This document shows, piece by piece, positions 17,504 to 54,008 of a DNA stretch of 64,000 nucleotides. Source of the stretch: an uncultured bacterium (GTDB lineage: Bacteria; Krumholzibacteriota; Krumholzibacteriia; Krumholzibacteriales; Krumholzibacteriaceae); NCBI GenBank assembly GCA_963846325.1, contig CAWJVO010000009.1, positions 251,083 to 315,082 on the forward strand, written 5' to 3'. Position 1 is the first letter of the stretch, and every line of letters starts with the position of its first letter. The translations under genes were made by a program, and so were the position numbers. Under the pieces are notes generated by a model. It saw only the letters and a program-made list of their open reading frames with translations, was not told the origin of the DNA and searched no databases.

Positions 17504-17591
17504 CCACCACCACATCCTTGAGCCGAAGATACTATACCGCGAAGGCGCGGATTATTTCAACAGAAAAAAAATCAGCCCTGACGGAATTCGA

Positions 17592-18887
17592 TCATCTCGT
17601 CAATCCCAGCCTCCTGAGCGTCTCTTCCCCCCGATCGCTCCCTTTCTCGTAGCCGTACCATCCGTCGGCGATCCTGCCCCGGATATCTATGATGTAGTTG
17701 AGCGGCAACGCGCTCAGTCCCGTCGCCGTCCGGTATTTGCCGTGAAACACCTCCCGCGCCGCGGCCGTCGTATCGACGACGTTCGGGAACCGTATCGACT
17801 CCTCGCGAAGAAATTCCTCCGCCGGCTCCCTGCCGTCCGCGAAGTTGAAGCCGAGCACGACGAGCCCCTCTCCCGCGTATTTGTCCTGAAGGCCCTGCAG
17901 ATGGGGAAGCTCCTTGCGGCACGGCAGGCAGCTGAGCCGCCAGAACGAGAGCCAGACTACTTTGCCGCGATGCTCCGACAGCCGGAATCGCGAGCCGTCG
18001 AGAAGTACGAGATCGAAATCGGGCGCTTCGCTCCCCGGTTTCAAGAGACCGTCGTCGAGCGATTGCAGCCGGTACTCCTCCCATCCGGGGGGAGGCTTCC
18101 ACTTGAAAATGTCCTTCGAAATCGCGCCGTCGACGACGACGTCGCGCCACCGCTCGCGCACGACGATATCGCGCTTTCCTCTCACGGTTTCCTCGAGCAT
18201 CCGGGGCAGGCGGTCGCGTCTCGCGATCCAGAACACCCTCGTCCGCAGGCCCTTCAGATAGCTCGCCTCGACGATATCGCACACTTCGCCGTCCGCGTTG
18301 ACCGAGCCGCCGCTCCTCACGCTTTCGAGAAGCGCGTCCATGAGATCGGGACTTCCGTGGAAGATGCTCGGATCGAGGATCGTCATCGACATCCCGGTGC
18401 CGAGAACGCTCGTTTCGCGCGCGATCGAGTGATCGCCTTTCCGCGCGTCCTTCCGGAGATACGAACTCCCGACGCCCCGCGCGTTCGACGCGGAATCGCT
18501 CTCGTGGATATAGGGTCTTCCGTCCGGCCAATAGATCCACATCTGCCGGCCGTCGAGGACGATGACGCCCGTTTTCGTCCCGTCCTCGCTCTTCGATTCG
18601 AGCCGCGCGTAGTTGGGCTTCGCGAGCGAAAGCCGATAGAGCGAGCGGCCGATATCCTTTCCGCCGGTCTCCCGGACGTACTCGCTCTCGAAGGAAAGCG
18701 AGCGCGCCTCCCGCATCGCCGCGTGCATGCCCCGGTAGATCGCGAGCGCCGCGGCGTCCCCCCGCACGGCGACGCCGGATCCTCGCCCGCTCGGCGCCGC
18801 TCCGAAAGCGGAGAACGCCGCGAGCGCCGAAAGAAGGCCCGCGACGAGCGCCGAGACGTTCCCGAACCCCTTCATACGAGTCCCCAT
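17592..18887 (-). CDS. TlpA/ResA-like thiol-disulfide oxidoreductase with N-terminal LolA-like domain
   Basis: A signal peptide (MKGFGNVSALVAGLLSALAAFSA) is present. The C-terminal thioredoxin fold has a CxxC site (WLSFWRLSCLPCRKELPHL). Confidence 0.7.
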   Translation of the reverse strand: MGTRMKGFGNVSALVAGLLSALAAFSAFGAAPSGRGSGVAVRGDAAALAIYRGMHAAMREARSLSFESEYVRETGGKDIGRSLYRLSLAKPNYARLESKSEDGTKTGVIVLDGRQMWIYWPDGRPYIHESDSASNARGVGSSYLRKDARKGDHSIARETSVLGTGMSMTILDPSIFHGSPDLMDALLESVRSGGSVNADGEVCDIVEASYLKGLRTRVFWIARRDRLPRMLEETVRGKRDIVVRERWRDVVVDGAISKDIFKWKPPPGWEEYRLQSLDDGLLKPGSEAPDFDLVLLDGSRFRLSEHRGKVVWLSFWRLSCLPCRKELPHLQGLQDKYAGEGLVVLGFNFADGREPAEEFLREESIRFPNVVDTTAAAREVFHGKYRTATGLSALPLNYIIDIRGRIADGWYGYEKGSDRGEETLRRLGLTR

Positions 18888-21019
18888 GCCTTCCTCAATA
18901 TCCATTCGATTCCGAGGAGCAGGACGATGCCCGCGAGAATCGCGGCGTTTCCGCGAACCTCCCGGGTATCCCTCCGTTCGACGCGCCGATCGGAGAGATT
19001 CAATCGCCGGGGGAGCGAGTCGAGACCGGCGCCCTCGAGATATGAGCCGCCCGTGTCCCTCGCGATCCTTTCGAGGAGGGAGGCATTCCGCGACGGGTCG
19101 AGGAGCTCGACCGATACGCCCGCGACGGAGAAGGAGGCCGCCGCCGAGATTCCGCTCCCGGAACCGCTCGTTTCCGAAACGGTCACGGCGTAATCGCCGG
19201 GGGGCAGCGGATCGAGCGCCGCGCGGTAGTACCCCCGCCGCTTCGGATCGGGCTCGAAGGCGACGGTGCTCACGGAAACGTCGCGGCCCTCCCCTTTTCT
19301 TCGCACCTCTCCCCGTATCCCTTCGGGAGGGCGCCTGCTCCCGATATACGCGCCGAGCTTCACGCGATCTCCGGTGCGATAGACGGTCCGGTCCGGATCG
19401 ACCGCGAGCGCGGGCGCGCCCGCGCCTTCGGCAAGGCTCTGCACGAGCCCGCCGAAAAACGATTCGTATACCTTCCGCCCCTCCTCTCCGGCGAGCTTCC
19501 ATCTCCAGAGAGGAAAACCGAGAACGGCGCCCGAGAGCCCTTCGCCGGACCGCCCGAGGACGAGAAAGGGCGTCCTCGCTCCGCGATCCTCGAGAACGAG
19601 CGGTATCCGCGATCCCGAAGCCGCCGCGAGTCCCGCGATCCTCGCCGTGAGCGGCGGCATGGCGTCGAGACCTCCGTCCTCGGCGAGGCTCGAAACGATC
19701 GCGTCGCCGGCTCCCTCCGCCGAAACCCGGGCGAAGCCCTCCGCGTACTCGATCCTCGGACCGGATGTGCGCCTGAGGCCCAATACCGGCTGAAGCAGAT
19801 CGAACGACACCCCCCTCGCGAGGGGGGAATTCTCGTCCGCGACGAAGAGAACGCTTCCGCCCGCCTTGACGAACGCGTCGAGAGCCTCCGCGTTCGGCCG
19901 CGCGTCGAAGAGCTTCGCGTCGTCGGAGACGATCACGAGATCGTACCTCCCGATCCCCGCCGCGCCCGCGGCGAACGTCCATGGCGCGTTCCCGGGATCG
20001 ACGGCGAAACCCCCGCCCGCCTTCCATGAAACGGTTTCGACTTCGAGCCGTTTCGAGCCCTTGACGAGATCCCGGACGAACGTCATGTTCCAGTCGGGAT
20101 ATTGATCGATATAGAGAATCCGCACCTTGTCCTTGAGGACGTCGAGCCTGAACGATTCGACGTTGTTTTCCCGGTGCTCCTCCCCCGCGAGGGGCAGCGC
20201 CTCCACCGAGAGCCGGCGCTCCCCTTCGGCGTCCGCCGCATAGTCGAGGGTGACGCCGATTATCTCGTCGTCCTTCTTCACCGTCAGATTCGCGCTGTCC
20301 TTGATCCGTTCCCCCTCGAGAAGGCGCACGACGATCGTCGCGCCCTTGAAACCCGCGGCGCGGATAACCGCCTCGACGGGGACGGTCGTTCCGCGGTAGC
20401 CGACGCGGTCCGCCGCGATTTCCTCGATGGAGACGTCGGCCGCGGCGATCGTATCGCCGAACCCGACCGCATGGACCGGCGCCGCGACGGGCTCGCCCGA
20501 GGAGACCATTCCGCGCGTGACCCGGCCGTCCGTGAGGATCACGATTGCGGCGGGATTCCGGGAACGGTACCTTCTCTGCACGGCTCCGAGAGCCCCCCAA
20601 ATGTCCGTGCCCTCCCCGTCGGCCCTGACCGCGCTGTCCGCGCGGAGCGGATCGCTCGAAAGCGCGTCCGCGAAGGGCACGACCTCGACCTCCGCTTTCG
20701 CGCTCTCGAGAGCGGCGCGAAACCGCGCGAGGCGCCCGAGGGCGTCGTCGAATCTCGATTTTCCCGACGAATCCCTGATTTCCATGCTGCGGGAGCGATC
20801 GAGAAGAACGAGCACGAGCGGTTTTCTGATCTCGACCCTTTTCGAGATGAACACGGGATTGACGAGAAGAAGAGCGAGGAGAGCGAACGCCCCGATCCTC
20901 ATCGCGGCGAGGAGCGCGCGACGAACGAAGGGAAGGGGCGGGAACGTCCTTCGATACAGAATGAACGTGAGCGCCGCGAGCGCCGCGGCGACCGGTATTT
21001 TCCAGGGCTCGAGATGCAT
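18872..21019 (-). CDS. BatA-like membrane protein with von Willebrand factor A domain
   Basis: Two N-terminal TM helices are followed by a vWA MIDAS-like motif (VLVLLDRSRSMEI...ILTDGR). A C-terminal TM is present (ILAGIVLLLGIEWIL). The start is taken at the internal Met MHLEPWKIPVAAALAAL. Confidence 0.65.
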   Translation of the reverse strand: MHLEPWKIPVAAALAALTFILYRRTFPPLPFVRRALLAAMRIGAFALLALLLVNPVFISKRVEIRKPLVLVLLDRSRSMEIRDSSGKSRFDDALGRLARFRAALESAKAEVEVVPFADALSSDPLRADSAVRADGEGTDIWGALGAVQRRYRSRNPAAIVILTDGRVTRGMVSSGEPVAAPVHAVGFGDTIAAADVSIEEIAADRVGYRGTTVPVEAVIRAAGFKGATIVVRLLEGERIKDSANLTVKKDDEIIGVTLDYAADAEGERRLSVEALPLAGEEHRENNVESFRLDVLKDKVRILYIDQYPDWNMTFVRDLVKGSKRLEVETVSWKAGGGFAVDPGNAPWTFAAGAAGIGRYDLVIVSDDAKLFDARPNAEALDAFVKAGGSVLFVADENSPLARGVSFDLLQPVLGLRRTSGPRIEYAEGFARVSAEGAGDAIVSSLAEDGGLDAMPPLTARIAGLAAASGSRIPLVLEDRGARTPFLVLGRSGEGLSGAVLGFPLWRWKLAGEEGRKVYESFFGGLVQSLAEGAGAPALAVDPDRTVYRTGDRVKLGAYIGSRRPPEGIRGEVRRKGEGRDVSVSTVAFEPDPKRRGYYRAALDPLPPGDYAVTVSETSGSGSGISAAASFSVAGVSVELLDPSRNASLLERIARDTGGSYLEGAGLDSLPRRLNLSDRRVERRDTREVRGNAAILAGIVLLLGIEWILRKAWGLV

Positions 21020-21163
21020 CGGCTTCTCCCTCGCGCGCGGCCGTCGATGCATGCTAGCAGAGAGAGGAGCCGGCGTCAAAATCGAAAGACCGATTCGCAG
21101 CCCGGGGCGGGCGAATAGTGAACGTCCGGGGACGGCGCGGCGCACCGGCGGGAAGAGAGAGAG

Positions 21164-21622
21164 CTATTCGGTCTTGTGCCCCGGCGAGGTCACGACCCGG
21201 GCGCCTTTGCCGTCCGAAGCCGGATTTTCGCCGGAATCGACGGACTTCGCTCCGGCGTCCCCCGAGGCCTTCCGGTAGCTCTTCACGGCCTCGTCGACCG
21301 TATCGAAGCTCTGGAGAATGGTCTGGAACTCGAGCAGCTCGAAAACTTCGTAGACGTCGCCGATCATCGCCGCGAGCCTCAGATCGCCGCCGTTCTCTCG
21401 AATCGACTTGATCTCGCTGATGAATATGCCCCAGCCGGCCGAACTGATGTAGTTCACGCCGCCGAGGTCTATGACGATATTGTAGCGGCCCTTCTTGAGA
21501 AGCCTCTTCATGCTCTCTTCGAGCTCGGCCGATGTGGTAGTATCCACGTACCCCTGAACGGACAGCACCGACACATCCGCGTTCTCCTCGGGTCTCGAAA
21601 AAGATACGTTGATCCCTTCCAT
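21164..21622 (-). CDS. STAS-domain anti-sigma-factor antagonist (SpoIIAA/RsbV-like)
   Basis: The STAS phospho-serine motif is present (IVIDLGGVNYISSAGWGIFISE). Confidence 0.8.
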   Translation of the reverse strand: MEGINVSFSRPEENADVSVLSVQGYVDTTTSAELEESMKRLLKKGRYNIVIDLGGVNYISSAGWGIFISEIKSIRENGGDLRLAAMIGDVYEVFELLEFQTILQSFDTVDEAVKSYRKASGDAGAKSVDSGENPASDGKGARVVTSPGHKTE

Positions 21623-21649: not shown

Positions 21650-22022
21650 TCAATCCTGAATCCTTGTATTCTGATGCAAAGCGAAGGCGGCGAGCGCCTC
21701 TTCCTTCGAATTATACGGCGTCAGGAGCGTATTGAACTCGAGAAGATCGAATACCTCCCGCACGTCGACGTGCATCGACGCGAGCTTGATGTCCCCGTTC
21801 CGCTGCCTGATTCCCTTGATCTCCCCGACGAAAATGCCCCATCCCGCGGAGCTGATGTATTCCACGTCGCCGAGATCGGCGACGATCCGCACGCTGTTCG
21901 ACGAAACGAGATCGTTGAACTTGTCCTCGAGGAACTGCGCCGTGCCCGAGTCGACGATCCCGCGCAATTTCAGGACGACGACGTTATCAACGAAATCTTC
22001 ATCTATAACGAGCTTGTCCATA
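21650..22022 (-). CDS. STAS-domain anti-sigma-factor antagonist (second stand-alone copy)
   Basis: The motif IVADLGDVEYISSAGWGIFVGE is present. The likely start is MDKLVIDEDF. Confidence 0.8.
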
Positions 22023-22066
22023 AATCTGCCGGTCCTCTCCTGTGCCCACCCCGATACTAGCAAACT

Positions 22067-23185
22067 TCAGTCCAATAGTGCCTTAAGGAGGATAAATATG
22101 CCTTGCCGGTCGTTCTCGGACAACCGGAGATTCTTCTGGGCCTTTTGATAGCTCGTGTTTATTTCGAGCGCTTTTCGGAAGGCTTTGCTCGCCATGTCCA
22201 TGTAAATCTTGCATTTTGCAGTATAGAGAATGCCAAGGCTGTTGTGACCGTCCGCGAAGGTCGGGTTCTGGTCGACGATCTCCCGCACGCGGTCGAGATA
22301 TCTCTCGATCTCCTCCTCCTGGAACTCCTCCCCTTCATAGATCAGCATCATGTAGAGATCGAGAATGATGTCGTCGATGCCGCCGCGGATCGACGGCTGC
22401 TTCGCCGACTCGAGAACCCCGTAGGCGCCGTCGTAATCCTTCCCCCTGAAGAGCGCCCGCGCTTCCTCGATGCGATCGTGCATGAGATACGGATCGAGCT
22501 GCTCGGCGCGCTCGAGGCTGCCCAGAAAGGTCTCGTCGAGGTCGCGCGACAGCTCGTAATCCTCCTTCACGATGGTATTGAGGAGAAACGCGCGCGCGAG
22601 ATTGAGGTACGGCTCGCCGTAGTAGAGGTTGAGCTCGATGGCCCGCTTGAAGCACTCGATCGCCGGCTTGCACTTCTGCTGCTTGAGATGAATCTTGCCG
22701 AGAAGGTTGTGCATGTCGGGATAATCCGGCGTTCTCTCGAGGCCGGTCCGCGTCGCCTCGAACGCTCTCTCGAAATCCCCCATCTCGTAGTACGATTCTC
22801 CGATGATCATGCCGGACAGGGAATCCTTGTTCCCCTTCTTGACCGATTTCAGCGCTTCCTGGATCGCTTCGTCATAGAGATGCCGCTTGAACAGCGCCTG
22901 GGCGATTCTGAGATGAGGTTTCGGATCCTCCGAGGAACGGATCCGCCCGCTCACGTCGAGAATGAGCATGAATTTCCGCTTGTTCTCGAGATGCGCTTCC
23001 TTCGTCTCGCGGCGCGCGTCGTCGGGCGTCCCTTTGCCGTCGACTTCCGTCTGAACCGTATCGAAGAGGACTCCGTCCTTGAAGAACGAGCTCTGAATGA
23101 CGCCCTTCTTCATCAGGAGACTCGTCTGGAGGAAATATTTCTTTCCTCCATGATCGATCTCTTCTCTCAATTCGAAACTGGTCAC
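22067..23185 (-). CDS. TPR-repeat protein
   Basis: Multiple tetratricopeptide-like helices are visible (AIECFKRAIELNLYYGEPYLNLARAF, AFRKALEINTSYQKAQKNL). The length is 372 aa. Confidence 0.75.
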   Translation of the reverse strand: MTSFELREEIDHGGKKYFLQTSLLMKKGVIQSSFFKDGVLFDTVQTEVDGKGTPDDARRETKEAHLENKRKFMLILDVSGRIRSSEDPKPHLRIAQALFKRHLYDEAIQEALKSVKKGNKDSLSGMIIGESYYEMGDFERAFEATRTGLERTPDYPDMHNLLGKIHLKQQKCKPAIECFKRAIELNLYYGEPYLNLARAFLLNTIVKEDYELSRDLDETFLGSLERAEQLDPYLMHDRIEEARALFRGKDYDGAYGVLESAKQPSIRGGIDDIILDLYMMLIYEGEEFQEEEIERYLDRVREIVDQNPTFADGHNSLGILYTAKCKIYMDMASKAFRKALEINTSYQKAQKNLRLSENDRQGIFILLKALLD

Positions 23186-23236: not shown

Positions 23237-24012
23237 CTAGAGACCCGGCGCCGCTTCCACGACATCCTCATGCGAACGTTCGAGACCGAGGATTTCCTCG
23301 GTGAGATGATAATAATCGAACGCGCCCCGCGAAAGCGGCGCGTGCTCGAATACCGTCTTGTTCTGGCCGGGCGCCTCGCGGATCGCGGCGTTCATCCGTA
23401 TGATCGTCGTGAAGATCCGCTCCCCGAAGCGCTCGCGCAGATCGCCGAGCATCTGGTGCGACAGCCGGACGCGGGAATCGTAGAACGTGGGAAGCAGCCT
23501 GAACGATATGGGCTTCCGGCTGTTGAGAGTCTGGATCTCCTCGATGATCCCCGCCGTTTGCTCCGCGCCCGCCCGCGAGAGGTAATCCATGGAGACCGGA
23601 ATGATGACCTCGTCGCAATAGGCCAGCGCGTTGATGTTGATGAGATTGAGGGACGGAGAGCAGTCGCATATCACGTAGTCGCATCCCTTGAGGTGCTTGA
23701 GCGAGTCCGCCAGCCGGCGCTCGCGGTGTTCCCGCGCCCCGAGCTTGAGCTCGACTTCCGCGAGCTTGCGCCCCCCCGAGTCGATGAAGAAGAGATTGTC
23801 GCGAACCTGGAGGATGTCGACCTCGCCCGACGTCAGAAGATCGGCGAGCCCCCGGGGACTCTCGACGCCGAAGGTGACCGCGACGCTCCTCTGCGGATCG
23901 CAATCGATGAGCAGGATGCGCCGCCCGGACAGCGAGAGGCCGTGGGCGAGGCTGACCGCCGTCGTGGTCTTGCCCGTCCCCCCTTCATCGTCATGATCGC
24001 GTACCGCTTCAT
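23237..24012 (-). CDS. ParA/MinD-like P-loop ATPase, apparently frameshifted at a G6 run in the Walker-A codons
   Basis: The ATG at 24012 gives MKRYAIMTMKGG, after which the frame is lost. The -1 frame continues GGTGKTTTAVSLAHGLSLSGRRILLIDCDPQ...CDCSPSLNL and reaches 23237. One extra G in the C/G run at 23978-23983 would restore MKRYAIMTMKGGTGKTTT. Confidence 0.65.
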
Positions 24013-27000: not shown

Positions 27001-28279
27001 TCTCCTTCTGGAGGCGCTCCTGCTCGACGACGTTCTTCTGCGCCGCGCGGAACTTCGAGGTGATTTCGTTGAACGCCCGCGCGATCTCGCCGATCTCCTT
27101 GGGGCCTTCGATCTTGAGCTCGTCGTTGAGCGATCCCTCGCCGATCGCCCGCACGCCGTCGGTGAGCGCCTGGATAGGCCGGACGAAAACCGCGATGAGA
27201 AGGTACAGGAGCGCGACGCCCGCGGCGAACACGCCGATGAGAAGCAGCGTCATCATCGGCCTCGGATCGACCAAATCCTCGACGACCGCGGCGATCGAGA
27301 CACCCATGACGATCCTGCCGATCGGTTCGGCGTTGGCCCGCTGCGTCCCCGCCCGGTACACGGGCTGATGAAACTCCCTGACCGCGCCGACTCCCGGCAT
27401 TTGAACGGTCCGCGACAGGCCTCCCTGCGCGAGCGCTTCCGTTCCGGCCGGAATGTCGTACGCCGCGAGGAGCTCGTCGACGTCGCTCGTGGCGACGACG
27501 ATCCCGTCGCCGTCGACGAGCCTGATATATTTCGTTTCGGGATACTTTTTGAGCTGCTTGATGAAGGTTTCGTTCAGGCGCATGCGCTCGACCGAGAACT
27601 GATCCTCGCCGAGAGCGTTTTCGCTCGCCGCGGCGATATTCTCGGCGACGGACTTGCGCTGGAGCCACACCTGCGCGTACCGCCCGCGAACCTCCTGCGT
27701 CTGTCGATAGAACAGGATCGACCAGAGAAATACGATGAGCCCGAGAAGACCGAGCGTCGCGCGAAGCGCGAACTTGAAGCGGAGCGTCGAAGTCCACCGG
27801 GGCTTCATGAGCGAGGCGAAGAGCGGTCTCTGGGCGACCGAAACGGCCGAGCTCTTCGCCATGTAGAGCCGGTTGCCCCCCGGCGCGGCCGAATAGCTGA
27901 GCGTGTCCATGAGCCGGTTCATGAGGTAGATGCCGAGTCCGCCCTTTTTCCCGATTTCGACGTAGAGATCGAGATCCGGCTCTTTCACTTTCGACCAGTC
28001 GAACGGCTCCCCTCTGTCGAAGATGTTGATCTCGATCTTCCCCGGCTCGGCCTGGACGTCGATCCTGACGTCCCCCACCTTGTCCCGGTACGCGTGCTTG
28101 ATGATGTTCGTGCACGCCTCGTCCACGGCGAGCTTCGTGTTGTTGGTCTCGCTCTTCGAGAAGCCCGCGCGATCGCAGACATCGGCGATGAAGTCCCTGA
28201 CCTCGCTCAGGTTGTTCTCGTCGGCGGGCACCTCGAGATGGAACGTTTCGCGATCGGTGAGGAGACCTTTCTTCTTCAC
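24017..28279 (-). CDS. 1420-aa multidomain membrane signalling protein: RsbW-type kinase + 2TM sensor + HAMP + PP2C phosphatase + HTH pair + 3 STAS domains
   Basis: A single uninterrupted ORF with a GTG start that overlaps the upstream stop as GTGA. See the domain sub-features below. An alternative Arg-rich frame and the long antisense ORF were rejected. Confidence 0.85.
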   Translation of the reverse strand: MKKKGLLTDRETFHLEVPADENNLSEVRDFIADVCDRAGFSKSETNNTKLAVDEACTNIIKHAYRDKVGDVRIDVQAEPGKIEINIFDRGEPFDWSKVKEPDLDLYVEIGKKGGLGIYLMNRLMDTLSYSAAPGGNRLYMAKSSAVSVAQRPLFASLMKPRWTSTLRFKFALRATLGLLGLIVFLWSILFYRQTQEVRGRYAQVWLQRKSVAENIAAASENALGEDQFSVERMRLNETFIKQLKKYPETKYIRLVDGDGIVVATSDVDELLAAYDIPAGTEALAQGGLSRTVQMPGVGAVREFHQPVYRAGTQRANAEPIGRIVMGVSIAAVVEDLVDPRPMMTLLLIGVFAAGVALLYLLIAVFVRPIQALTDGVRAIGEGSLNDELKIEGPKEIGEIARAFNEITSKFRAAQKNVVEQERLQKEMQVAQEIQHTLLPKKVPEIGGYDIASYYKAAKEVGGDYYDFVKVDDDTLGVVVADVSGKGVPGSLVMTMIRTALRMEARGNYSAAEVMARMNDFVTEDMKKGMFVTIFYSILDSKNRIISYASAGHNPMILYRAETDETYFLNPRGFPVGISLPDDTLFRRSIDVEKIKLKKDDMLVIYTDGVTEAMNVDRAQYGEERLLQLIKASGKLTPQEFIDRLSAAIKEFTGDMPQNDDITVVAIKEKLMADEVLFGIRKKLLDLVEIQGIPVAEACRMMKVSPSTYYRYKKRVVEMGDRGLQDKTLRKEDDIKRVSLEQRKGILEIIRKNPKYGAKKIADLFNEGREEKERLTQAIVYDELKRIRLNTYDLRLEYLRRNKIITDEQFKALLAAQVRAEPDAFKLAAGEGIASIPGEPEIEEAPAPRPARAARPAKPVPTRARDRSIARDPEFGSGEGRAVEVASEELEGGIVVLRVKGHLDSSSAGELEGILESVYEYGYRKIIVDLKDVTYISSGGWGIFTGRVKSLREGDGDVVLAGMTSEVYDIYELLGFQEIIMQFADVEAAVEYVALPLVERRNKLEEVSRRRAALKPVEVRQASESPGAPEILDVQDEEAPWTALKIEAGTVGDRGEITILSLDGVIDTVSCVKLRSVLDSFVDRGIVKLVVDMSRVEYVSSSGWGVFASRIKDIRARGGDFKIFGMDEEVHSIFHMLGFDSIMRSFGVLGEAIENFKVPSPDGAISGDAVDTEEAGKPVQPVSGGSIGAEPEEPGLAIGVAKAKEGPKGIVVFSIAGAVDSSTSDELESRLEQCLAEDPAHLVLDLSDMVYISSSGWGIVVKYMQKLGASGGALALAGMNSTILKIFRDLGFEPLIPHFGTLERALEELRLPKKLGEAARREKIAQAGAKSRPKKEESVSGGPAEREDAGQDLASALLGKADIIPLEPLKTVKEEEKVIFIDFKQRTDVREDKDRRIKKLGWEEYGKKLSESEQNPKHRKK
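24365..25624 (-). other. domains: three tandem STAS (anti-sigma antagonist) domains
   Basis: The phospho-Ser motifs are VTYISSGGWGIF, VEYVSSSGWGVF and MVYISSSGWGIV. Each lies in a module of about 105 aa. They are separated by Pro/Ala/Glu-rich linkers. Confidence 0.75.
25880..26233 (-). other. domain: transposase-type helix-turn-helix pair (HTH_28 / IS630-Tnp-like)
   Basis: The motif IPVAEACRMMKVSPSTYYRYKKRV is followed by RKGILEIIRKNPKYGAKKIADLFNEG. It resembles the N-terminal DNA-binding modules of IS630/IS3-family transposases. No catalytic domain is present. Confidence 0.45.
26276..26992 (-). other. domain: PP2C-type Ser/Thr phosphatase (SpoIIE/RsbU-like)
   Basis: The SpoIIE-like motifs are GGDYYDF, ADVSGKGVPGSLVM, ASAGHNP and YTDGVTEA. 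It covers aa 430-668. Confidence 0.75.
27020..27760 (-). other. domain: TM1 - extracytoplasmic sensor region - TM2 - HAMP
   Basis: TM1 is LGLLGLIVFLWSILFY. A hydrophilic segment of about 150 aa follows. TM2 is MMTLLLIGVFAAGVALLYLLIAVFV. HAMP-like heptads then follow (IQALTDGVRAIGEGSLNDELKIEG...IARAFNEIT). Confidence 0.6.
27860..28222 (-). other. domain: HATPase_c anti-sigma-factor Ser/Thr kinase (RsbW/SpoIIAB-like)
   Basis: The N-box is EACTNIIKHAY and the G-boxes are DRGEPFD and GGLGIYLM. It covers aa 20-140 of the 24017-28279 protein. Confidence 0.75.
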
Positions 28280-30180
28280 CGTTTTCCCTCCGGAACGCCC
28301 GTGTTCTCAAGCCGCTTCCGGGCTTCCTCGATATTCTTCGAGACGCTTTCGTTATCAGGATCGATGTCGAGAATCTTCTTCCACTGTTCGACGGCGCTCG
28401 TGTACTTGCCCTGGGTGAAGAATTTCATCCCTTCGATGTACAGCGCGCGAACCTGCGCCTTTTCCTTGTCGGTGAGCGGCGTCATGCGTCGCTGGGCGCG
28501 AAGCAGGAGCCTCCGTCCCTCCTCATGGGTCGGCTCGAGCCTGAGAAGCTCGCCGAGCCCGGCGGACGCCTCGGCGTACTTTCCGTCTCCGAACGCCTTG
28601 ACGGCGCCGTCGAAGAGCTCCATGACCCTGAGCTTCTTGCTCGTTTGCGTGTAATCCCTGCTCATCTCGTCGAGACGCCGGTTGATCCTGTCCGCGGCCT
28701 CTTTCGCTTCGACCGATTCGGGATCGAGCGTCCGAACGACGTTCCATTCGCCGAGGGCGGCCGCGAGCTGCCCCTGCCTCTCGAGCTCGCCCGCCCGCGC
28801 GCGATGCTGTTCCGCGAGGCTTCCGAGCTTCTCCTCGGTCTTCCCGAGGTACTCGAGCGCGCTCGCGTTCGACGAATCGAGCGCGAGGACGTTGCGCCAT
28901 TCCGCGCGGGACAGAACGTAGTCGTCCGTGCTGTAGTAATCGAGGCCGAGCTTGAAATGCCGGCTGATGAGAGCGGCCTTCTCGGCGTCCTGCGTGCGCG
29001 AGCGCTCCTCGGCGAGAATGGTCCGCTCCACGACGGCGAGCGTCTCGGCGACCGCCGTATTCGTCGGGTCGTACTCGAGGGCGAGCTTGAGCTCGTCGAG
29101 CGCCTTGCCGAGCGCTCCTTCCTTCCGGTAGCGTTCCGCCTCGCTCACGTGGCCGGAAATCCGCTTCGAGAGAATCTGCCGGATGCGTCCCTCCTCCTCG
29201 ACGAGGCGGCGCTGCTCGCGCGCAGCGATCTTCTCCTCGATCGACTCGCCGATGCGGGACGACAACGTCAGGGGATGCGAGCTCCCCGCGTCTCCGCGGC
29301 TGAAAAAGCCGTAGTCGAACGAGAAGCCCCGCCACCCGAGGCCGAGGCCCGCCGTGATCGACTCGGAATCGAATCCGACGCGGACGCTGACGAAATTCTT
29401 GAACAGGTATTCCGCGCCGAACCGGAACTCTTTCTCATCGCGCTGCGGAGCGTTCATCTGGAGCGCGAGCGAGAGCGACGAACCGTTCGCGAACGGATAG
29501 ATGTATCCCGCGCCCACCATGATCGTCCGGTCGACCTTGTCGGTCAGCGTGACGAGCTTCGTTTCCGCCCCGACGATATCCTGCAGGTTGCATCCCACGG
29601 CGACTCTCCGGACGTACTTCGGCCGGTACACGAATCCGATATCGAGCCCCGTTCCGGCGGCCGAGAGCTCGCCGACCCTCTGGTTGAGCACCTTGACCGA
29701 GGCGCCGGCCGTCACGTCGCCGACGTAACGCCACGGGAGATCGAACGCGTAGCCGAGAATCACCTGGCTCTCGCGGTAGTCGAGCTCTCCCGTTTCCCTG
29801 CTGAATTCGTCGAATCCTCTGATACCGCCCGTTCCGACCGTCATGATCCCGAGGCCGATCGAGCCGGCCGAGATCGTCGGATACACGAGCCCCAGAAAAT
29901 CGTACGTCGCGTCGCTGAAGCCCGACAGAAGCTGGATATGATTGAGCACCGCGCCGGGACGGCGGCACAGCCGCAGCGCCGCGGGATTGTAATAGAGAAC
30001 GGAAGCGTCGTCCCCGATCGCGGAAAAAGCGCCTCCGAGGGCGATCGCCCGGGATCCCGCGCCGATGCTGAAGACGGACCGCGTGCCCCCCGTTCCATCC
30101 TGCGCGGCGGCGTCAACCGAAGCGACGGAGAGAACGCAGGCGATCGATATGAGGATGACGAGCTTCTTCATGATACCCAC
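28276..30180 (-). CDS. FadL/PorV-like outer-membrane beta-barrel domain fused to a C-terminal TPR-repeat region
   Basis: A signal peptide (MKKLVILISIACVLSVASVDAAAQ) is followed by a FadL/PorV-type N-terminal motif (SRAIALGGAFSAIGDDASVLYYNPAAL). The barrel spans about 300 aa. About 330 aa of TPR-like helices follow (ALDELKLALEYDPTN..., AVEQWKKILDIDPDN). The family call rests on recalled motifs. The stop overlaps the downstream GTG start. Confidence 0.55.
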   Translation of the reverse strand: MGIMKKLVILISIACVLSVASVDAAAQDGTGGTRSVFSIGAGSRAIALGGAFSAIGDDASVLYYNPAALRLCRRPGAVLNHIQLLSGFSDATYDFLGLVYPTISAGSIGLGIMTVGTGGIRGFDEFSRETGELDYRESQVILGYAFDLPWRYVGDVTAGASVKVLNQRVGELSAAGTGLDIGFVYRPKYVRRVAVGCNLQDIVGAETKLVTLTDKVDRTIMVGAGYIYPFANGSSLSLALQMNAPQRDEKEFRFGAEYLFKNFVSVRVGFDSESITAGLGLGWRGFSFDYGFFSRGDAGSSHPLTLSSRIGESIEEKIAAREQRRLVEEEGRIRQILSKRISGHVSEAERYRKEGALGKALDELKLALEYDPTNTAVAETLAVVERTILAEERSRTQDAEKAALISRHFKLGLDYYSTDDYVLSRAEWRNVLALDSSNASALEYLGKTEEKLGSLAEQHRARAGELERQGQLAAALGEWNVVRTLDPESVEAKEAADRINRRLDEMSRDYTQTSKKLRVMELFDGAVKAFGDGKYAEASAGLGELLRLEPTHEEGRRLLLRAQRRMTPLTDKEKAQVRALYIEGMKFFTQGKYTSAVEQWKKILDIDPDNESVSKNIEEARKRLENTGVPEGKR

Positions 30181-30184
30181 GCTC

Positions 30185-33100
30185 TCACTTTGCGACGGCG
30201 ATCTTGAAGAGCGCCGATTGCGAGCCCGCCTCGACCTTGCACATGTACACGCCGTTTCTCACGAGCTCTCCCCGGTCGTTTCGGCCGTTCCACGGGATCT
30301 CGTGCCATGTCCCTTCCGGCGCGCCCGTGCCTCCGGCGTCTCCCGAGCCGATGCTCCTGGTCCAGACGAGCCGGCCGCCGAGGTCGTAGATCTTGATCGA
30401 AACGGCCGAGTTCTTCTTCAGGAAATAGCAGATCTTCGTCGGCTCGGTCCCCGCCCTGAACGGATTCGGATAGTTGTGGACGTATTCGTCGAAACGCGCG
30501 CTCATGATCGAGAGCGGACCGCTCCGGAAATGCCCCGCGATGTCGCCTCCGTCGAGCTCCAGCGCGACTCCGATCCGCGTCCCCGATTCGCTGATGGAGA
30601 CGACGACGTCCGCGCTGCGCCCGATCTCGAACCTGATCTCCCCGGCGAGCGCCCTCGCGGCGATGTCGGCCGCGAGCAGCAGCGTGTCGGCGCTGCCGGG
30701 CGCCAGGGTGAATCCGTGTCCGACGACGATCGGAACGGGATTGCGGCCCGCGACCGCGGCCGAATACTCCGATCCGCCGACCGCGCACGAGAGCGAAGCG
30801 ACCGACCTGGCCGGATCCGCGGCGGGACTGCCCCGTCCGTCCTCGATCGCCACGTAGAGCGTGTCGAGACCGATGGTGAAACCGGAAGCGTTTTTCAGGA
30901 CGATCCGCATCACGGGAACGTCCTGAGCGCCCTGAGGAACGACGAACGGCGGTATCGAATCCGCGCTCGACGCGTTCGACATCAGAACGGAGCCCGCCTG
31001 CGTCTGAACGGGGATGAACGCCGCTCCGGTCGATATCTCGCACGGGAGGTTCGTATTGACGTCGGTCGCGTACGGCTCGATGAGCCTCACCTCGATGTTT
31101 CCCGGGGAGGTCGGCGACGCGGGCGCCCTGACGTTCCATACGACGCTCTGTCCCGGGTAGAACGGCTTGCGATACGTCTCCGGGGCACCGTCGAGCGCAT
31201 ATCCCTGCCCGGCGGGTAGCACGATCTCCATCCGCGCTCCCGTCGTATCCAGCGCCGCTTCTCCCGATCTCGCCGCGGTCGCCTCGATCGTGAACGGCAG
31301 ACTGATCGACACGGATCCGTCGAGAGCCTCGTCCGGTCCCGAGATTCGAGCGCTCATGGCGAGCGCCGGCCTGATCAGCACGTGAACGGGAAAGACGACG
31401 CGGCACGTCCCGACGACGCGGCCGGAGTTGACGTCCTTCCCGCCCGCGCGAACGACGAGCGTGTCGGCGTCGACATGGCCCATCGGAGCCCTCATGATCC
31501 AATCGACCGTCACCTGCGTCCCCGTCCCCCTGCCGATGAACCGGGTCCGGTCGCCGATGACGGAGAATCCCGCCGGCGCCGAGATTTCGATCCATACCGA
31601 GTCGGTGCTCGCCGAGGGGCTGAAAATCGCCCGGGCCGTGAAATCCTGCTCGGTCGAGAGCGTGCCGTCGACGGCTCCCTGCGGAGCGGCGATCGAAATC
31701 GCGCATCCGCTCACGCCTCCCGCTTCCACGGTCCGGAGCGCCACGGCCGATTCGATCAGGCGGACGGCCGCCGGAAGGGCCGTATTGACGCCGTCGGGGA
31801 TCCGGCTGATGCGCGCTTTCACGGTGTCCTGCGACGGCGCCGCGGGCGCGACGAGCGTCCAGGAGACGGCGCTGCCGGTTCCGAGACGCTTCACGAGCGG
31901 ATCCGCCGAGTTCGCGAGGAGCACGGACGGCGGGAGCGCGAGAGTCACCTCTCCCGTCGTATCGACGAGCGCCTGCCCTTCGTTGGAGACGGCGGCGGTG
32001 ACGACGAAGGTCTGGCCGACCGAGAGCGTGTCGTCGAGAGCGCCCGCGGGGGCCGTGACCGAGACGCCGCACGAGAGGAGCGCGGGGAGCTCGATGCGGA
32101 GATTCTCTATCGACTCCGCCGCCTGGGCCGGATAGACGCGCTCGCCCGTGTTCACCGAAACCGCGTAGACGATCGACGAGGTCAATATCTCGCTCCCGGG
32201 CGCCGAAGCGGCGACGATCGAGAATGCGAAATCCCTTTCCGACTTCGAGGGGACGGACACGAGCGAATCGCCGACGATCGCGGTTCGCGTGGCGCCGTTC
32301 GAGACGAGGTGCACGTTGACGCTGTCGAGATCGTCCCCCCCCGTATTCTCGACGCGGACGGTCACGCCGAACGCCTGATCGGTATCGACGACCGACGTGT
32401 TGGGGAAGAGCGCGTTATTCGGCGCGTCGCTCGTCACCGAAACGATCCGCAGACCGGACGGCGCCTTGACGCGCACCGATCCCGAGCCGGCCGCGGAGCC
32501 AGGCTCGCGAAGCGGATCGTTCATATCCGTCCATCCGGCTCCGGCGTCGATCGCGACCATGCCCGTATCGCCGCCGGTCGAGGAGATGCGATAGATGAGC
32601 GAATCCGAGGCTCCCCCGGCGAGTGAGAAGGAGCTCGAGCCCGAGCCGAGCGTATCGGGAGCGATGACGAAATAATCGTAACGCCTCGTGCCGAGGAGCG
32701 AGAACGCAAGATCCGAAGCCGCCGGAGCGCGGAGCGCGAGAGGCGCCTCTCCCCTGTTCGCGATGGAGACGCTTACCGTCCAGTCCGCGGCCTGGCTTGC
32801 GTTCACCTCGCCCTGCGAAGGTCTGACGGAGAATATCTCGAGCGCCGCGAGGCTCTGTATGATCGCGCGCGTCGTGTCGTCGAGAGCCGGATTGACGCGG
32901 ACGAGATCGCTCTCGCGTGAGTTGCCGTCGAGAGCGCCCCTGATATGCGCCCTGAACGTTTCGAGCCCGCTCGCGGTCCCCGCCGTGATCCTGAAGGTGT
33001 CGGACTCCGCCGCCGCGCCGCTCAACGCGCCCAGGACGAGGAGGGTATCTTCGATGCCGGAAGAGCCGGAGTGTTCGAGCGCCACCCGAATACTCTCAGC

Positions 33101-41641: not shown

Positions 41642-42895
41642 CGTCGACCGAGTCCAGCCCCGTTCGCCACAGCCAACGCCTTGTCCACCGTTACCGTCGA
41701 AACCGCCGCGCTGAAGAGTCCCGCGGCAAACGTCACGTTTTGCGTCTGCGTAATCGGCGTCGCGCCCACCCTCGCGCTGACCGTCTTCAGCTCCGCCTTC
41801 GTCGACCGCAGCTTCCCTACCAGCCGCCCATCCGCCCCCGTCACTCCCGACGAGGGAGTGATCGTGTTCAACGTCCCCGTCGCCTCTATCGTCACCGAGC
41901 TCCCCGCTATCGGGTTCCCCTGAGCGTCCGTCACAAGCGCCGTCACCGCGATCGAGTCAGTCCCGTTCGCCACAGCCAACGCCTTGTCCACCGTTACCGT
42001 CGAGACCGAGGCGCTGAACGGCCCCGGGGGTGAACGTCACGTTTTGCGTCGTGCGTGATAGCCGTCGCGCCCACCCTCGCGCGTGACCGTCTTCAGCTCC
42101 GCCTTCGTCGACCGCAGCTTCCCTACCAGCCGCCCGTCCGCCCCCGTCACTCCCGACGAGGGAGTGATCGTGTTCAACGTCCCCGTCGCCTCTATCGTCA
42201 CCGAGCTCCCCGCTATCGGGTTCCCCTGAGCGTCCGTCACAAGCGCCGTCACCGCGATCGAGTCAGTCCCGTTCGCCACAGCCAACGCCTTGTCCACCGT
42301 TACCGTCGAAACCGCCGCGCTGAAGAGTCCCGCGGCAAACGTCACGTTTTGCGTCTGCGTAATCGGCGTCGCACCCACCCTCGCGCTGACCGTCTTCAGC
42401 TCCGCCTTCGTCGACCGCAGCTTCCCGACCAGCCGCCCGTCCGCCCCCGTCACTCCCGACGAGGGAGTGATCGTGTTCAACGTCCCCGTCGCCTCTATCG
42501 TCACCGAGCTCCCCGCTATCGGGTTCCCCTGAGCGTCCGTCACAAGCGCCGTCACCGCGATCGAGTCAGTCCCGTTCGCCACAGCCAACGCCTTGTCCAC
42601 CGTTACCGTCGAAACCGCCGCGCTGAACGGGCCCGGCACGAACGTAACTCCTCGGGAATTCGTGATCCCGACCCCTCCCGCCTTTGCGCTGATCGTCTTC
42701 AACTCCGCCTTCGTCGACCGAATTTTCGAGATCATCCGCCCGTCCGAACCGCTCAATCCCGCGGGAGGACTGATCGTGTTCGAGCTGCCTGTCGCTTCGA
42801 CAGTCACAACGCTTCCGCTTATCGGATTCCCCTGCGCGTCGGATACAAACACCGTTACGGTGACCGAGTCCGCCCCGTTCGCCGTCACCGTCGTT
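40467..42895 (-). repeat. tandem array of 303-bp (101-aa Big_1) coding repeats, several copies 100 % identical
   Basis: Identical plus-strand shadow ORFs recur at 40770, 41073, 41376 and 42290 (period 303). Divergent copies flank the array at 40467 and 42593. Confidence 0.85.
41638..41991 (-). CDS. adhesin fragment (one Big_1 repeat unit) isolated by frame disruptions
   Basis: The 117-aa sequence is identical to the repeat consensus. It is flanked by indel-containing repeat junctions. Confidence 0.5.
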   Translation of the reverse strand: MDKALAVANGTDSIAVTALVTDAQGNPIAGSSVTIEATGTLNTITPSSGVTGADGRLVGKLRSTKAELKTVSARVGATPITQTQNVTFAAGLFSAAVSTVTVDKALAVANGAGLGRR

Positions 42896-45066
42896 TTGTC
42901 CACTTGCACGTCCGACACCGCCGGGCTGAACGCCCCGGACGTGAACGTCACGTTTCTCGTCTGCGTAATCGGCGTCGCACCCACCCTCGCGCTGACCGTC
43001 TTCAGCTCCGCCTTCGTCGACCGCAGCTTCCCGACCAGCCGCCCATCCGCCCCCGTCATACCCGACGAGGGAGTGATCGTGTTCAACGTCCCCGTCGCCT
43101 CTATCGTCACCGAGCTCCCCGCGATCGGATTCCCGCTCGCATCCGTCACAAGCGCCGTCACCGTCACCGAGTCCACCCCGTTCGCCACAACCGTCGTCTT
43201 GTCCACTGTCACCGTCGAGACCGAGGCGCTGAACGCCCCGGGGGTGAACGTCACGTTCTGCGTCGTCGTGATAGCCACCCCGCCCACCCTCGCCGTGATC
43301 GTCTTCAGCTCCGCCTTCGTCGATCGCATTTTCCCGATCAGACGTCCGTCGGCTCCCGTCACTCCCGACGAGGGAGTGATCGTGTTCAACGTCCCCGTCG
43401 CCTCGAACGCCACGAAGCTGCCGCTTATCGGATTGCCATAGACATCCGTCACGAGAGCCGTCACCACGATCGAGTCGGCCCCGTCCGCTACGGCCGTCGA
43501 CTTGTCCACCGTCACATTCGAGGCCGCGGCGCTGAAGGGTCCGGGGGTGAAGGTCACCCCGGTAGATTCCACGATATCGACGCCGTCGATCTTCGCCGTG
43601 AGCGTTTTTCCCTCCGCCTTCATCGAAAGGATGCTCCCGACGGCGGAACCGGTTCCGCTCGTAACACTCGAGGGCTGATGGAGAACATTGCCGGAACCCG
43701 TCGACGCGATCAGAATGGTCGCTCCGTCGACGCCGTTGTAGAATACGTCGCGAGCCCTGATGGTGACCTCGATCGAATCCACGCCGTTTGCGATCGCCGA
43801 CGCCTTGTTGACCGATATTTCGGATGTGCTGGTATCAAATGGAGCGTTATCGATGTAGATCTGGGCCGATGCGGCCTCGAGCGTGGGAGGAATTCCGTTC
43901 ACGTCGAGGAACGCGAGGTCCACGGGGACGGCCATTTCCTTATCCGTGTTCCGGTAATCGAGATATGCATGATCGGAGCCGCTCGGTATGACGATCGACG
44001 TGATCGGCGTCGCATGGTCGGCCGTCGAATAGAAATCGCCCGGCTGTCCGAAAAGCGATATTCCTTGATCGTTGAGGAGCGGACTCGCGTTGCCCTCCGC
44101 GTCCTCGACCCCGAGCCGGTACCTCGCGTAATCCCCCGCGACGACTGTCGTATCGGATGGAGAGGCCATGAGTCTGAAAGGGGCGCCGGGATCGACGGTG
44201 ATCGCCTGTTGAGCGTCCGTCCACGATTGGCCGGAAGCGGAAGCGGTGATGGTCTTTCCGCCGGCGACCGCATCCCGGTAGTACAGCGATACCGTATCGA
44301 GTCCCGACGCGACGACGACCACGCTCGTCTCGACGAAATTCGAGCCTCCGAGATGCGAGAACCGGCCGCCGATCGCGGTCGAGCTCAACGAGATATTCTG
44401 ATCGCCGCTCACCGGGGAGGGATTGCCGAACTCATCCTCGGTTCTCACGCGGATCACGGCGCTTTCGCCGTCGGCGGGAAACGTCTGCGGCGAAGTGACG
44501 AACGAGAGCTGCACGATGGGTCCCGCGACGACGTTGAGCGTCGGCGACGACGCTATCGCAGCCTTGCCGGAGCCGTCGGGATTCGATCTCACGATGAATG
44601 GGACGCCGCTCTCGGCGCCGGTCTGGGCAGTCGCCCGGCCGCCGAGGTCGATACTCGCGTCGCCATACACGATGTCGATCGTCTGCCCGACCGACAGCGT
44701 GTCGACGGATATGGAAATCGTTCTGACGGCTATCGCGATGGCGGGCGCGCCGAGCACCCCTTCGCTCGATACGGTCACATATCCGGCAAGAGACGATGCG
44801 GAGATCTGGGGCGCGGACCAGCCGTCGGGAATCTCGAGCTCGATCGCCCCCGAAGTGAATGCTTCGGCGGCGGTGTAACGGATCGTCCAGGTGCCCGACT
44901 CTCCGACTACGACGTCGCTCGAAGGATTGATCGTCGCCGTCCCCGAGCCTCCCGCGCCGAAGGCCGCACCCGCGGCGAGCAGCGCGAAAACGCAGAGGCT
45001 CGCGGCGAGCGCGCGGTGTCGCAAGGAGATCGGAATCCTACGCTTCATGTACTCGATCCTGTTCAT
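42037..45066 (-). CDS. adhesin N-terminal fragment: signal peptide + Big_1/Ig-like repeats (1009 aa)
   Basis: MKRRIPISLRHRALAASLCVFALLAAGAAFGAG is a signal peptide. The C-terminal part of the ORF runs into the same 303-bp repeat array as the 30185-41641 ORF. Confidence 0.75.
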   Translation of the reverse strand: MNRIEYMKRRIPISLRHRALAASLCVFALLAAGAAFGAGGSGTATINPSSDVVVGESGTWTIRYTAAEAFTSGAIELEIPDGWSAPQISASSLAGYVTVSSEGVLGAPAIAIAVRTISISVDTLSVGQTIDIVYGDASIDLGGRATAQTGAESGVPFIVRSNPDGSGKAAIASSPTLNVVAGPIVQLSFVTSPQTFPADGESAVIRVRTEDEFGNPSPVSGDQNISLSSTAIGGRFSHLGGSNFVETSVVVVASGLDTVSLYYRDAVAGGKTITASASGQSWTDAQQAITVDPGAPFRLMASPSDTTVVAGDYARYRLGVEDAEGNASPLLNDQGISLFGQPGDFYSTADHATPITSIVIPSGSDHAYLDYRNTDKEMAVPVDLAFLDVNGIPPTLEAASAQIYIDNAPFDTSTSEISVNKASAIANGVDSIEVTIRARDVFYNGVDGATILIASTGSGNVLHQPSSVTSGTGSAVGSILSMKAEGKTLTAKIDGVDIVESTGVTFTPGPFSAAASNVTVDKSTAVADGADSIVVTALVTDVYGNPISGSFVAFEATGTLNTITPSSGVTGADGRLIGKMRSTKAELKTITARVGGVAITTTQNVTFTPGAFSASVSTVTVDKTTVVANGVDSVTVTALVTDASGNPIAGSSVTIEATGTLNTITPSSGMTGADGRLVGKLRSTKAELKTVSARVGATPITQTRNVTFTSGAFSPAVSDVQVDKTTVTANGADSVTVTVFVSDAQGNPISGSVVTVEATGSSNTISPPAGLSGSDGRMISKIRSTKAELKTISAKAGGVGITNSRGVTFVPGPFSAAVSTVTVDKALAVANGTDSIAVTALVTDAQGNPIAGSSVTIEATGTLNTITPSSGVTGADGRLVGKLRSTKAELKTVSARVGATPITQTQNVTFAAGLFSAAVSTVTVDKALAVANGTDSIAVTALVTDAQGNPIAGSSVTIEATGTLNTITPSSGVTGADGRLVGKLRSTKAELKTVTREGGRDGYHARRKT

Positions 45067-51212: not shown

Positions 51213-51264
51213 GGACCTCCTCTGCCGCCATCCCCGCCGCGCGGGCGTTCGGACGGCGATCCTC

Positions 51265-54008
<2,744 letters not shown>

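Follow-up and report, generated by a model that had tools for sequence, protein, structure and literature searches.

A PorV/PorQ-family barrel with a predicted periplasmic TPR tail is encoded between a giant surface protein and a partner-switching sensor in uncultured Krumholzibacteriota

Organization of the locus

The stretch of DNA analysed here, referred to as the window, is 64,000 nucleotides long and comes from an uncultured bacterium of the Krumholzibacteriaceae (assembly GCA_963846325.1, contig CAWJVO010000009.1, positions 251,083 to 315,082 of the forward strand). Our subject is a gene on its reverse strand that encodes a predicted outer-membrane beta-barrel followed by a long tail of tetratricopeptide repeats (TPR), hereafter barrel-TPR. 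Directly upstream lies the gene of a giant surface protein ending in a predicted T9SS-type (type IX secretion system) C-terminal sorting domain (CTD), and directly downstream the gene of a sensor assembled from partner-switching domains (Table 1). The three genes are tightly packed: the stop codon of the giant gene lies 4 nt ahead of the GTG that opens the barrel frame, and the TGA of barrel-TPR (28276-28278) overlaps the GTG start of the sensor gene (28279-28277) as GTGA. A first-pass annotation of this DNA had already reported that the barrel gene overlaps the start of a partner-switching megaprotein; the giant CTD protein upstream is, judging from the sequence, the partner that it overlooked.

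The same order was found in all seven loci that we read in detail (25-59% identity), where a gene for a large secreted protein is followed by barrel-TPR and then by a HATPase_c_2-(sCache)-HAMP-SpoIIE protein, with gene boundaries that mostly overlap or abut. The upstream secreted protein measures from 1069 to more than 3600 aa and carries, where domains are recognisable, Big_1, Invasin_D3 and CARDB. STAS domains come after the sensor or are fused to it in six of the seven loci, none being recorded in L005.

The co-occurrence of the genes was analysed in 87 loci scanned with barrel, tail, sensor and CTD profiles, and the count was made on the 80 barrels that have 1 kb or more of DNA downstream. 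Across phyla, the sensor lies directly downstream of 24 of the 27 tailed barrels, whereas none of the 53 tail-less barrels has it in this position; the TPR tail is essentially confined to loci where a sensor gene follows. The first-pass annotation had suggested looking for the fusion together with the megaprotein in other genomes, and, as far as gene neighbourhood goes, the link that it drew between barrel and sensor has strong support across phyla. An open reading frame (ORF) with a CTD ends just upstream of 24/27 tailed and 19/56 tail-less barrels. Because tail-less barrels also have such a neighbour, the pair of CTD protein and barrel seems to be the more ancient unit; tail and sensor appear to have come together.

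Table 1. Features of the barrel-TPR locus and of other genes in the window
Feature	Position	Strand	Remarks
Barrel-TPR gene	28276..30180	-	634 aa from GTG 30180, 631 aa from ATG 30171
Putative signal peptide of barrel-TPR	about residues 1-25	-	hydrophobic N-terminus MKKLVILISIACVLSVASVDAAAQ
Hatch-like N-terminal segment, residues 33-72, NPA motif N65-P66-A67	29965..30084	-	invariant columns, pLDDT 93-95
Predicted 14-stranded beta-barrel, residues 73-310, short extracellular loops	29251..29964	-	DSSP of AlphaFold model, Foldseek, NF033709
Predicted helical TPR tail, residues 314-627	28300..29241	-	Pfam TPR matches, model helices, motif positions, Foldseek
Giant surface protein, at least 3818 aa	30185..41641	-	domain matches: Big_1, Invasin_D3, CARDB Ig-like domains
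CTD of giant protein, NYPNPF ... WNGRNDRGELVRNGVY ... FKIAVAK	30188..30472	-	FlgD_ig / Por_Secre_tail-like
Probable N-terminal part of giant gene: signal peptide, Big_1 repeats	42037..45066	-	frame break to remainder
Sensor megaprotein, 1420 aa	24017..28279	-	HATPase_c_2, sCache_3_2, HAMP, SpoIIE, HTH, three STAS
ParA/MinD-like ATPase gene	23237..24011	-	conserved in Krumholzibacteriota loci
372-aa TPR protein	22067..23185	-	conserved in cluster
Two single-domain STAS genes, anti-sigma-antagonist type	21650-22063 and 21164-21622	-	cluster members
757-aa protein	18872-21145	-	weak VWA match; conserved distal gene
Lamin-tail-domain protein	15788-17515	-	weak CTD; conserved distal gene
Four further ORFs ending in T9SS-type CTDs	62892-63944, 57008-58288, ~54136-54400, 15788-17515	all -	subtype differs from that of the giant protein

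Predicted architecture of the barrel-TPR protein

Barrel-TPR occupies one unbroken frame, with base frequencies at the third and second codon positions (GC3 0.84, GC2 0.44) typical of real genes in this window of 63% GC. Homologues of the same length occur in many assemblies, which confirms the single barrel and TPR frame described in the first-pass annotation. Because these homologues begin with MKK or MKR, translation seems more likely to start at the ATG (30171) than at the GTG (30180). Four parts can be told apart in the protein: a signal peptide, a hatch containing the NPA motif, a barrel of 14 strands and a tail of TPR helices about 320 aa long. The N-terminus MKKLVILISIACVLSVASVDAAAQ, which is the sole hydrophobic, transmembrane-like segment of the protein, has the appearance of a signal peptide.

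Conservation is highest in the hatch, whose mean pairwise identity is 54%, as compared to 33% in the barrel and 28% in the tail. The motif quoted in the first-pass annotation was found in this region (GGAFSAIGDDASVLYYNPAAL, residues 49-69, with YYNPAAL at 63-69). N65, P66 and A67 are invariant across 50 homologues, and N65 and P66 are still invariant or at least 90% conserved at 25% identity.

The AlphaFold2 model, built from an alignment of 50 homologues, has a mean predicted local distance difference test (pLDDT) score of 85.5. Its residues 36-71 form short helices and residues 76-309 the 14 strands, and the part from 314 to 627 is purely helical, with twelve helices. The best Foldseek matches of the model in the PDB are the PorV chains 8gl6_F (E 9.8e-12) and 6h3i_F (7.3e-10), both from SprA-PorV complexes of F. 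johnsoniae, with target TM-scores of 0.60-0.66; TodX, FadL and OmpG come next. At the sequence level, the NCBIfam model of the PorV/PorQ family (NF033709) matches residues 37-307 over profile positions 7-317 of 326 and scores 104.4 bits, above its cut-off of 90. Overall, the gene product is predicted, from profile and model alike, to be an outer-membrane 14-stranded barrel of the PorV/PorQ family with the FadL fold and an NPA-bearing hatch, as the first-pass annotation had proposed. All barrel matches in Pfam (Porin_7, PorP_SprF, UPF0164 and Toluene_X) are below threshold. An identity as PorV, PorQ, PorV2, PorP/SprF or FadL proper was ruled out, since the models made for these proteins stay below their own cut-offs and the profile of the barrel does not match the solved PorV and FadL structures.

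As for the tail, several Pfam TPR models exceed their cut-offs between residues ~340 and 625: TPR_11 with 55.3 bits (cut-off 26.8), TPR_2 with 53.5 (27) and TPR_1 with 28.1 (27.8), and likewise TPR_19 and TPR_14. About five TPR-like motifs (G..Y..A...W..VL.LDP.N) are present, with long helices between them, and the Foldseek matches of the tail are TPR solenoids, i.e., designed CTPR proteins, P58IPK and OGT. In the model the tail must be periplasmic, because the N-terminal hatch is lumenal and is followed by an even number of strands (14). The first-pass annotation had placed a long C-terminal TPR region in the periplasm, and the HMM and AlphaFold checks that it named recovered both the barrel and the TPR part.

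The giant surface protein and its sorting domain

The CTD of the giant protein scores 28.3 bits with FlgD_ig (cut-off 27) and 22.1 bits with Por_Secre_tail, which is near the cut-off of that model, while the type B model CHU_C gives 13.4 against 27. The domain is, by these scores, type-A-like and not type B. The same CTD subtype, NYPNPF...WDGRN..G..VRNGVY...KIAV[AV][KR] followed by the stop codon, ends eight of eight upstream proteins. A profile made for this CTD scores 172 bits on the giant protein, whereas the four other CTD-bearing ORFs of the window reach at most 50 bits. One of these four is above the Por_Secre_tail cut-off and one is akin to the C-termini of PorZ and PorU. The source organism evidently makes wide use of CTD-dependent export, as far as these predicted domains tell. 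No T9SS core component (SprA/Sov, PorK/L/M/N, PorU) was recognised among the ORFs of the window that were scanned.

The giant gene itself is interrupted. A tandem array of 303 bp units (40467-43542; 10.1 copies, 89% matches) encodes near-identical Big_1 domains, and the frame break lies inside it, at 41960-42037. The ORF upstream of the break and the one downstream of it are probably one gene of ~4900 aa, and a collapse of the repeat during assembly is possible at the array.

The partner-switching sensor

The sensor begins with an RsbW-like kinase domain (residues 17-142), followed by a first transmembrane segment (~170-192), the sCache domain (207-335), a second transmembrane segment (~339-360), HAMP, PP2C/SpoIIE (471-667), a helix-turn-helix (HTH) region (680-800) and three STAS domains. 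The matches are strong, with 176 bits for SpoIIE, 107.9 bits for HATPase_c_2, 196 bits for STAS over the three domains and 167 bits for TIGR00377. By these profile matches, the whole partner-switching set, i.e., PP2C phosphatase, RsbW-type kinase and STAS substrate domains, is contained in a single gene. Because the two hydrophobic segments flank the sCache_3_2 domain, this domain is predicted to be periplasmic, and the kinase, HAMP, PP2C, HTH and STAS domains cytoplasmic.

Within the sensor, conservation is lowest in the periplasmic domain, which has a mean identity of 22% as compared to 46-57% for the cytoplasmic domains. In a mirror-tree comparison, this domain is also the part that best tracks the distances of the TPR tail (r 0.85), although the partial r of 0.29, against 0.09-0.11 for the controls, is a weak signal and is taken as a hint only.

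The HTH region between PP2C and STAS is transposase-like (HTH_23/28/32, with similarity to the N-termini of IS481, IS3 and IS630) and is present also in sensors of the Eisenbacteria type. A direct DNA-binding output of a membrane protein through this embedded HTH would be possible.

Distribution of the fused form

At E <=1e-5 we retrieved 148 proteins similar to barrel-TPR, mostly full-length at about 630 aa, down to 50% identity. Among the 120 matches listed, most measure 615-652 aa, cover at least 93% of the query (a few partial entries excepted) and are 50-99% identical to it; the named ones are 'PorV/PorQ family protein' of Candidatus Krumholzibacteriota, which places the window in this phylum. 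With a profile of the barrel only, 14,489 of 1.84 billion cluster representatives matched at E <=1e-3 and 241 at <=1e-30. The nearest 149 representatives, each standing for a 50%-identity cluster, include 104 proteins of at least 450 aa with a homologous tail, often colinear from end to end, and 23 of less than 380 aa, which consist of the barrel alone or are fragments; in a few representatives the TPR array extends to as much as 1000 aa. Named cluster members belong to Eisenbacteria and Zixibacteria. A large subfamily of ~610 aa comprises Zixibacteria, GN15 and Calditrichota, and many relatives of the Zixibacteria type have a recorded match to UPF0164 (PF03687). The genome scan, which was based on alignment A4 as the more diverse A3 had no sufficiently conserved stretch, gave full-length matches in Krumholzibacteriia, Latescibacterota, Ignavibacteria, Zixibacteria, a metagenome-assembled genome (MAG) of the 'FCB group', Endomicrobia and Firestonebacteria. 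All relatives found in a search for a cultured host derive from MAGs.

The fused barrel-TPR is a large and widespread subfamily in uncultured phyla of the FCB group and in neighbouring phyla. The first-pass annotation held that PorV/FadL barrels normally stand alone; this is right for the characterised PorV, PorQ, PorP and FadL, but not for the clade described here, and the literature also holds a precedent in Treponema (PMC8407342).

Two variants of the tail were observed. In four proteins (P0129, P0155, P0218 and P0254) the same barrel is followed by far longer TPR arrays, predicted to be periplasmic, for a total of 1160-1440 aa. Conversely, a form of ~465 aa in Goldbacteria has a short tail of about one TPR unit, with the sensor directly downstream (L025, 5974-7404, and its relatives); this form could help to find out how little of the tail suffices for coupling. 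L025 comes from a MAG labelled 'Spirochaetia', and a link to Treponema through this locus was dropped, its relatives being Goldbacteria proteins and no Treponema sequence having been retrieved.

Other genes of the cluster

In Krumholzibacteriota, the sensor with its HTH and three STAS domains fused in is followed by a ParA-like ATPase, a TPR protein, two STAS proteins, a protein of ~720 aa and a lamin-tail protein, and the window is arranged alike. The ParA-like gene is broken near 23975 by a 1-nt frame shift at a G-run in the Walker A codons (KGGTGKTT), while its orthologues are intact (245-248 aa); the break is either a sequencing indel or a mark of a pseudogene. Likewise, an apparent frameshift divides the gene of pyruvate phosphate dikinase: of two overlapping ORFs on the reverse strand, 52656-54008 contains PPDK_N and 51265-53337 the C-terminal part. 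The frame breaks in the dikinase, ParA-like and giant genes suggest indel errors in the assembly.

The giant gene has close upstream neighbours that encode pyruvate phosphate dikinase and a PatA_N/DUF4388 protein, in the window (50715-54008, reverse strand) and also in distant lineages (L003, 1-1249; L004, 1-2453). In another distant relative (L007, 12503-18667), the sensor and STAS genes are followed by those of a GGDEF protein, Wza, Wzz, a 373-aa TPR protein and a ParA-like ATPase. By analogy, this layout resembles SiaABCD joined to exopolysaccharide export, and it may explain the TPR and ParA-like genes of the Krumholzibacteriota cluster.

Comparison with characterised systems

With PorV of F. 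johnsoniae (6H3I, 8GL6) the protein shares the 14-stranded FadL-fold barrel, the N-terminal plug, the NF033709 family and the association with CTD proteins. On the other hand, the barrel described here is smaller, with short loops, and it scores far below the PorV equivalog cut-off. Furthermore, PorV lacks a periplasmic domain and serves many cargos, whereas barrel-TPR has one paired cargo gene and a TPR arm of 320 aa.

A closer parallel in gene order is offered by the specialised shuttles. SprF has SprB as its binding partner, and PorP has PG1035 and also PorE, a TPR protein (PMC9143113); cognate PorP/SprF-like shuttles are encoded beside their own substrates (PMC12618676). As in the PorP/SprF and PorQ-PorZ systems, the barrel gene of our locus comes directly downstream of the gene for a giant adhesin whose CTD is specialised, and as in PorP-PorE a barrel and a periplasmic TPR partner would belong to one complex (PMC9143113, PMC12618676). 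The differences are that the TPR part is here fused to the barrel, while PorE is a separate lipoprotein, that the CTD is type-A-like rather than type B, and that the PorP/SprF models remain below cut-off. To our knowledge, no partner-switching sensor is encoded beside PorP/SprF or PorQ-PorZ systems.

The plan of a barrel with a TPR tail has been described in Treponema pallidum, where TP0548, TP0859 and TP0865 combine a 14-stranded FadL-like barrel, an NPA/NAA hatch and a periplasmic C-terminal helical extension with TPR motifs, and are proposed to be nutrient importers (PMC8407342). The likeness is architectural: the Treponema model UPF0164 (PF03687) reaches only 17.1 bits on our protein, below its gathering threshold of 21.4, and covers only the N-terminal 60 residues. 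Moreover, the T. pallidum proteins are not reported beside CTD proteins or PP2C sensors.

A T9SS cargo that signals is known from P. gingivalis, where PorA uses its CTD to signal to the sensor kinase PorY (PMC12152298). The likeness to the PorA-PorXY-SigP pathway is that a cargo CTD would double as a signal to an inner-membrane sensor (PMC12152298). In that pathway, however, no TPR arm on a barrel is involved: the histidine kinase PorY is the direct binding partner of the CTD, and the output is a two-component system with an ECF sigma factor rather than partner switching. In the FecA-FecR-FecI system, a plugged outer-membrane barrel contacts an inner-membrane regulator through an extra periplasmic domain. 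FecA-type transducers have 22 strands, an N-terminal signalling domain and TonB as energy source, so that folds and partners are unrelated and the comparison is an analogy only.

Finally, the sensor resembles the RsbU/V/W and SiaABCD systems in its HAMP-PP2C phosphatase, its RsbW/SiaB-like kinase and its STAS domains, and one relative has a GGDEF gene in the manner of SiaD. In our case all the parts, together with the HTH, are in one protein of 1420 aa. We know of no outer-membrane partner of the Rsb or Sia systems.

A possible trans-envelope link and its alternatives

By analogy with the systems above, we propose that the barrel is the dedicated shuttle or anchor of the giant protein and that its TPR arm couples it to the periplasmic domain of the sensor, a reading to which we give about an even chance. 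The barrel would receive and hold the CTD of the upstream giant protein; we assign it this role because SprF-SprB, PorP-PG1035-PorE and PorQ-PorZ are cognate pairs of shuttle and substrate. The TPR arm would span the periplasm and dock on the Cache domain of the sensor or on its membrane-proximal region. The state of cargo and barrel, be it the arrival of the cargo, occupancy or the load on the adhesin, would then set the activity of PP2C. As in the RsbU/V/W and SpoIIE/AA/AB systems, which work by partner switching between phosphatase, STAS protein and kinase, PP2C would dephosphorylate the STAS domains, which would in turn capture the RsbW-like kinase. As output, the cascade could alter gene expression, by way of the embedded HTH or of a factor that is released, or else alter cyclic di-GMP (c-di-GMP) and exopolysaccharide, this second course being proposed because GGDEF, Wza and Wzz genes come next in the one relative mentioned above. 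The signal could run outside-in or inside-out.

More broadly, these loci might encode an unrecognised trans-envelope device of uncultured FCB-group phyla, in which a T9SS-type barrel dedicated to one cargo would keep a giant adhesin in place through the adhesin's CTD and be wired by its TPR arm to a Cache-HAMP-PP2C sensor, so as to sense or to control the adhesin. This wider view we put forward tentatively.

Several observations weigh against the coupling that we favour. The equivalog models of PorV, PorQ and PorV2 (NF033710, NF033711 and NF052325) failed, with 18.9, 64.0 and 61.7 bits against cut-offs of 250, 220 and 325, respectively, and of the label 'T9SS-type shuttle' given in the first-pass annotation only the membership of the broad PorV/PorQ family stands. 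Below their cut-offs are also the PorP/SprF models TIGR03519 (21.1 against 90.55 bits) and PF11751 (19.8 against 22.3 bits), and the sequence profile of the barrel matched no solved structure, PorV and FadL included. The extracellular loops of the model are very short, unlike those of PorV, which bears on the way in which a CTD could be held. The low conservation of the periplasmic domain of the sensor fits variable ligand binding equally well as a co-evolving interface. As for the association of tail and sensor, the Fisher p of 2e-17 is an upper bound on its significance, as related lineages are counted as independent, and three tailed loci (L022, L026 and L075) are without a full sensor. Finally, gene neighbourhood alone cannot separate contact from co-regulation.

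The tail could instead be a structural arm only, which we regard as rather unlikely. The barrel would hold the CTD, the tail would serve as a scaffold to peptidoglycan or to the secretion machinery, and the sensor genes would be co-transcribed without any direct contact. TPR proteins of this kind exist: PorE is reported to bind both PorP and peptidoglycan, and PorW to form a bridge between Sov and the PorK/N ring. Moreover, the best NCBIfam TPR matches of the tail are PilW, BamD, Tgl and GltC, all outer-membrane-associated assembly lipoproteins. This account, however, leaves unexplained why the tail is restricted to loci with the sensor (24/27 as compared to 0/53), and 19 tail-less barrels also have a CTD protein upstream.

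The same neighbourhood data could also be read in the opposite direction, which by analogy with the logic of LapD/LapG-LapA would mean that the sensor cascade acts through the TPR arm on the barrel and controls the display, retention or release of the giant adhesin. The sensor has domains capable of input in the cytoplasm (kinase, STAS) beside its periplasmic one. Nevertheless, in the loci read in detail the conserved core encodes no periplasmic protease or other effector, and HAMP-PP2C proteins with a periplasmic Cache domain, such as the RsbU- and SiaA-type phosphatases, normally signal inward. We consider inside-out control unlikely.

Less probable still is a FadL-type uptake channel. In this case the barrel would import a hydrophobic small molecule, either the Cache sensor or a transporter would receive the ligand, or the information, from the TPR arm, and the giant protein would be no client at all. 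The NPA hatch motif, invariant here, is essential for FadL gating, and a similar proposal exists for TP0548/0859/0865 (PMC8407342); TodX and FadL are also among the fold matches. However, the PorV chains rank above both in Foldseek, the FadL/TodX model Toluene_X (PF03349) gives 11.6 bits against a gathering threshold of 29.7, and an uptake channel has no role for the tight pairing with one CTD subtype across phyla. Last, an artefactual fusion of two genes by frameshift or mis-assembly, for which the three other frame breaks of the window might be invoked, is refuted by the equal length and domain order found in hundreds of independent assemblies from several phyla, and we give it practically no credence.

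Significance

In our literature search we found no paper on a module of giant CTD protein, barrel-TPR and sensor, and none that joins partner switching with the T9SS or PorV or that deals with the T9SS in Krumholzibacteriota. As predicted from the sequences, the arrangement is distinct from everything characterised in its fused TPR arm, its one-to-one pairing with a CTD subtype and its near-constant partner-switching sensor neighbour. How T9SS surface proteins communicate with gene regulation is largely unexplored, PorA-PorY being the single studied case and a recent one. The domain fusion, together with the near-perfect co-occurrence of tail and sensor, points to an interface open to testing, with the outer-membrane anchor of a cargo on one side and a partner-switching phosphatase on the other, and the arrangement is kept in at least six candidate phyla without a cultured or genetic model. 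The TPR-tailed FadL-like proteins of T. pallidum gain a place in a wider architectural class, and proteins that carry generic database labels ('PorV/PorQ family protein' or 'TPR repeat protein') gain a functional handle. If the proposed coupling is true, the cell would sense the deployment of, or the load on, a surface adhesin, or would control this adhesin from inside.

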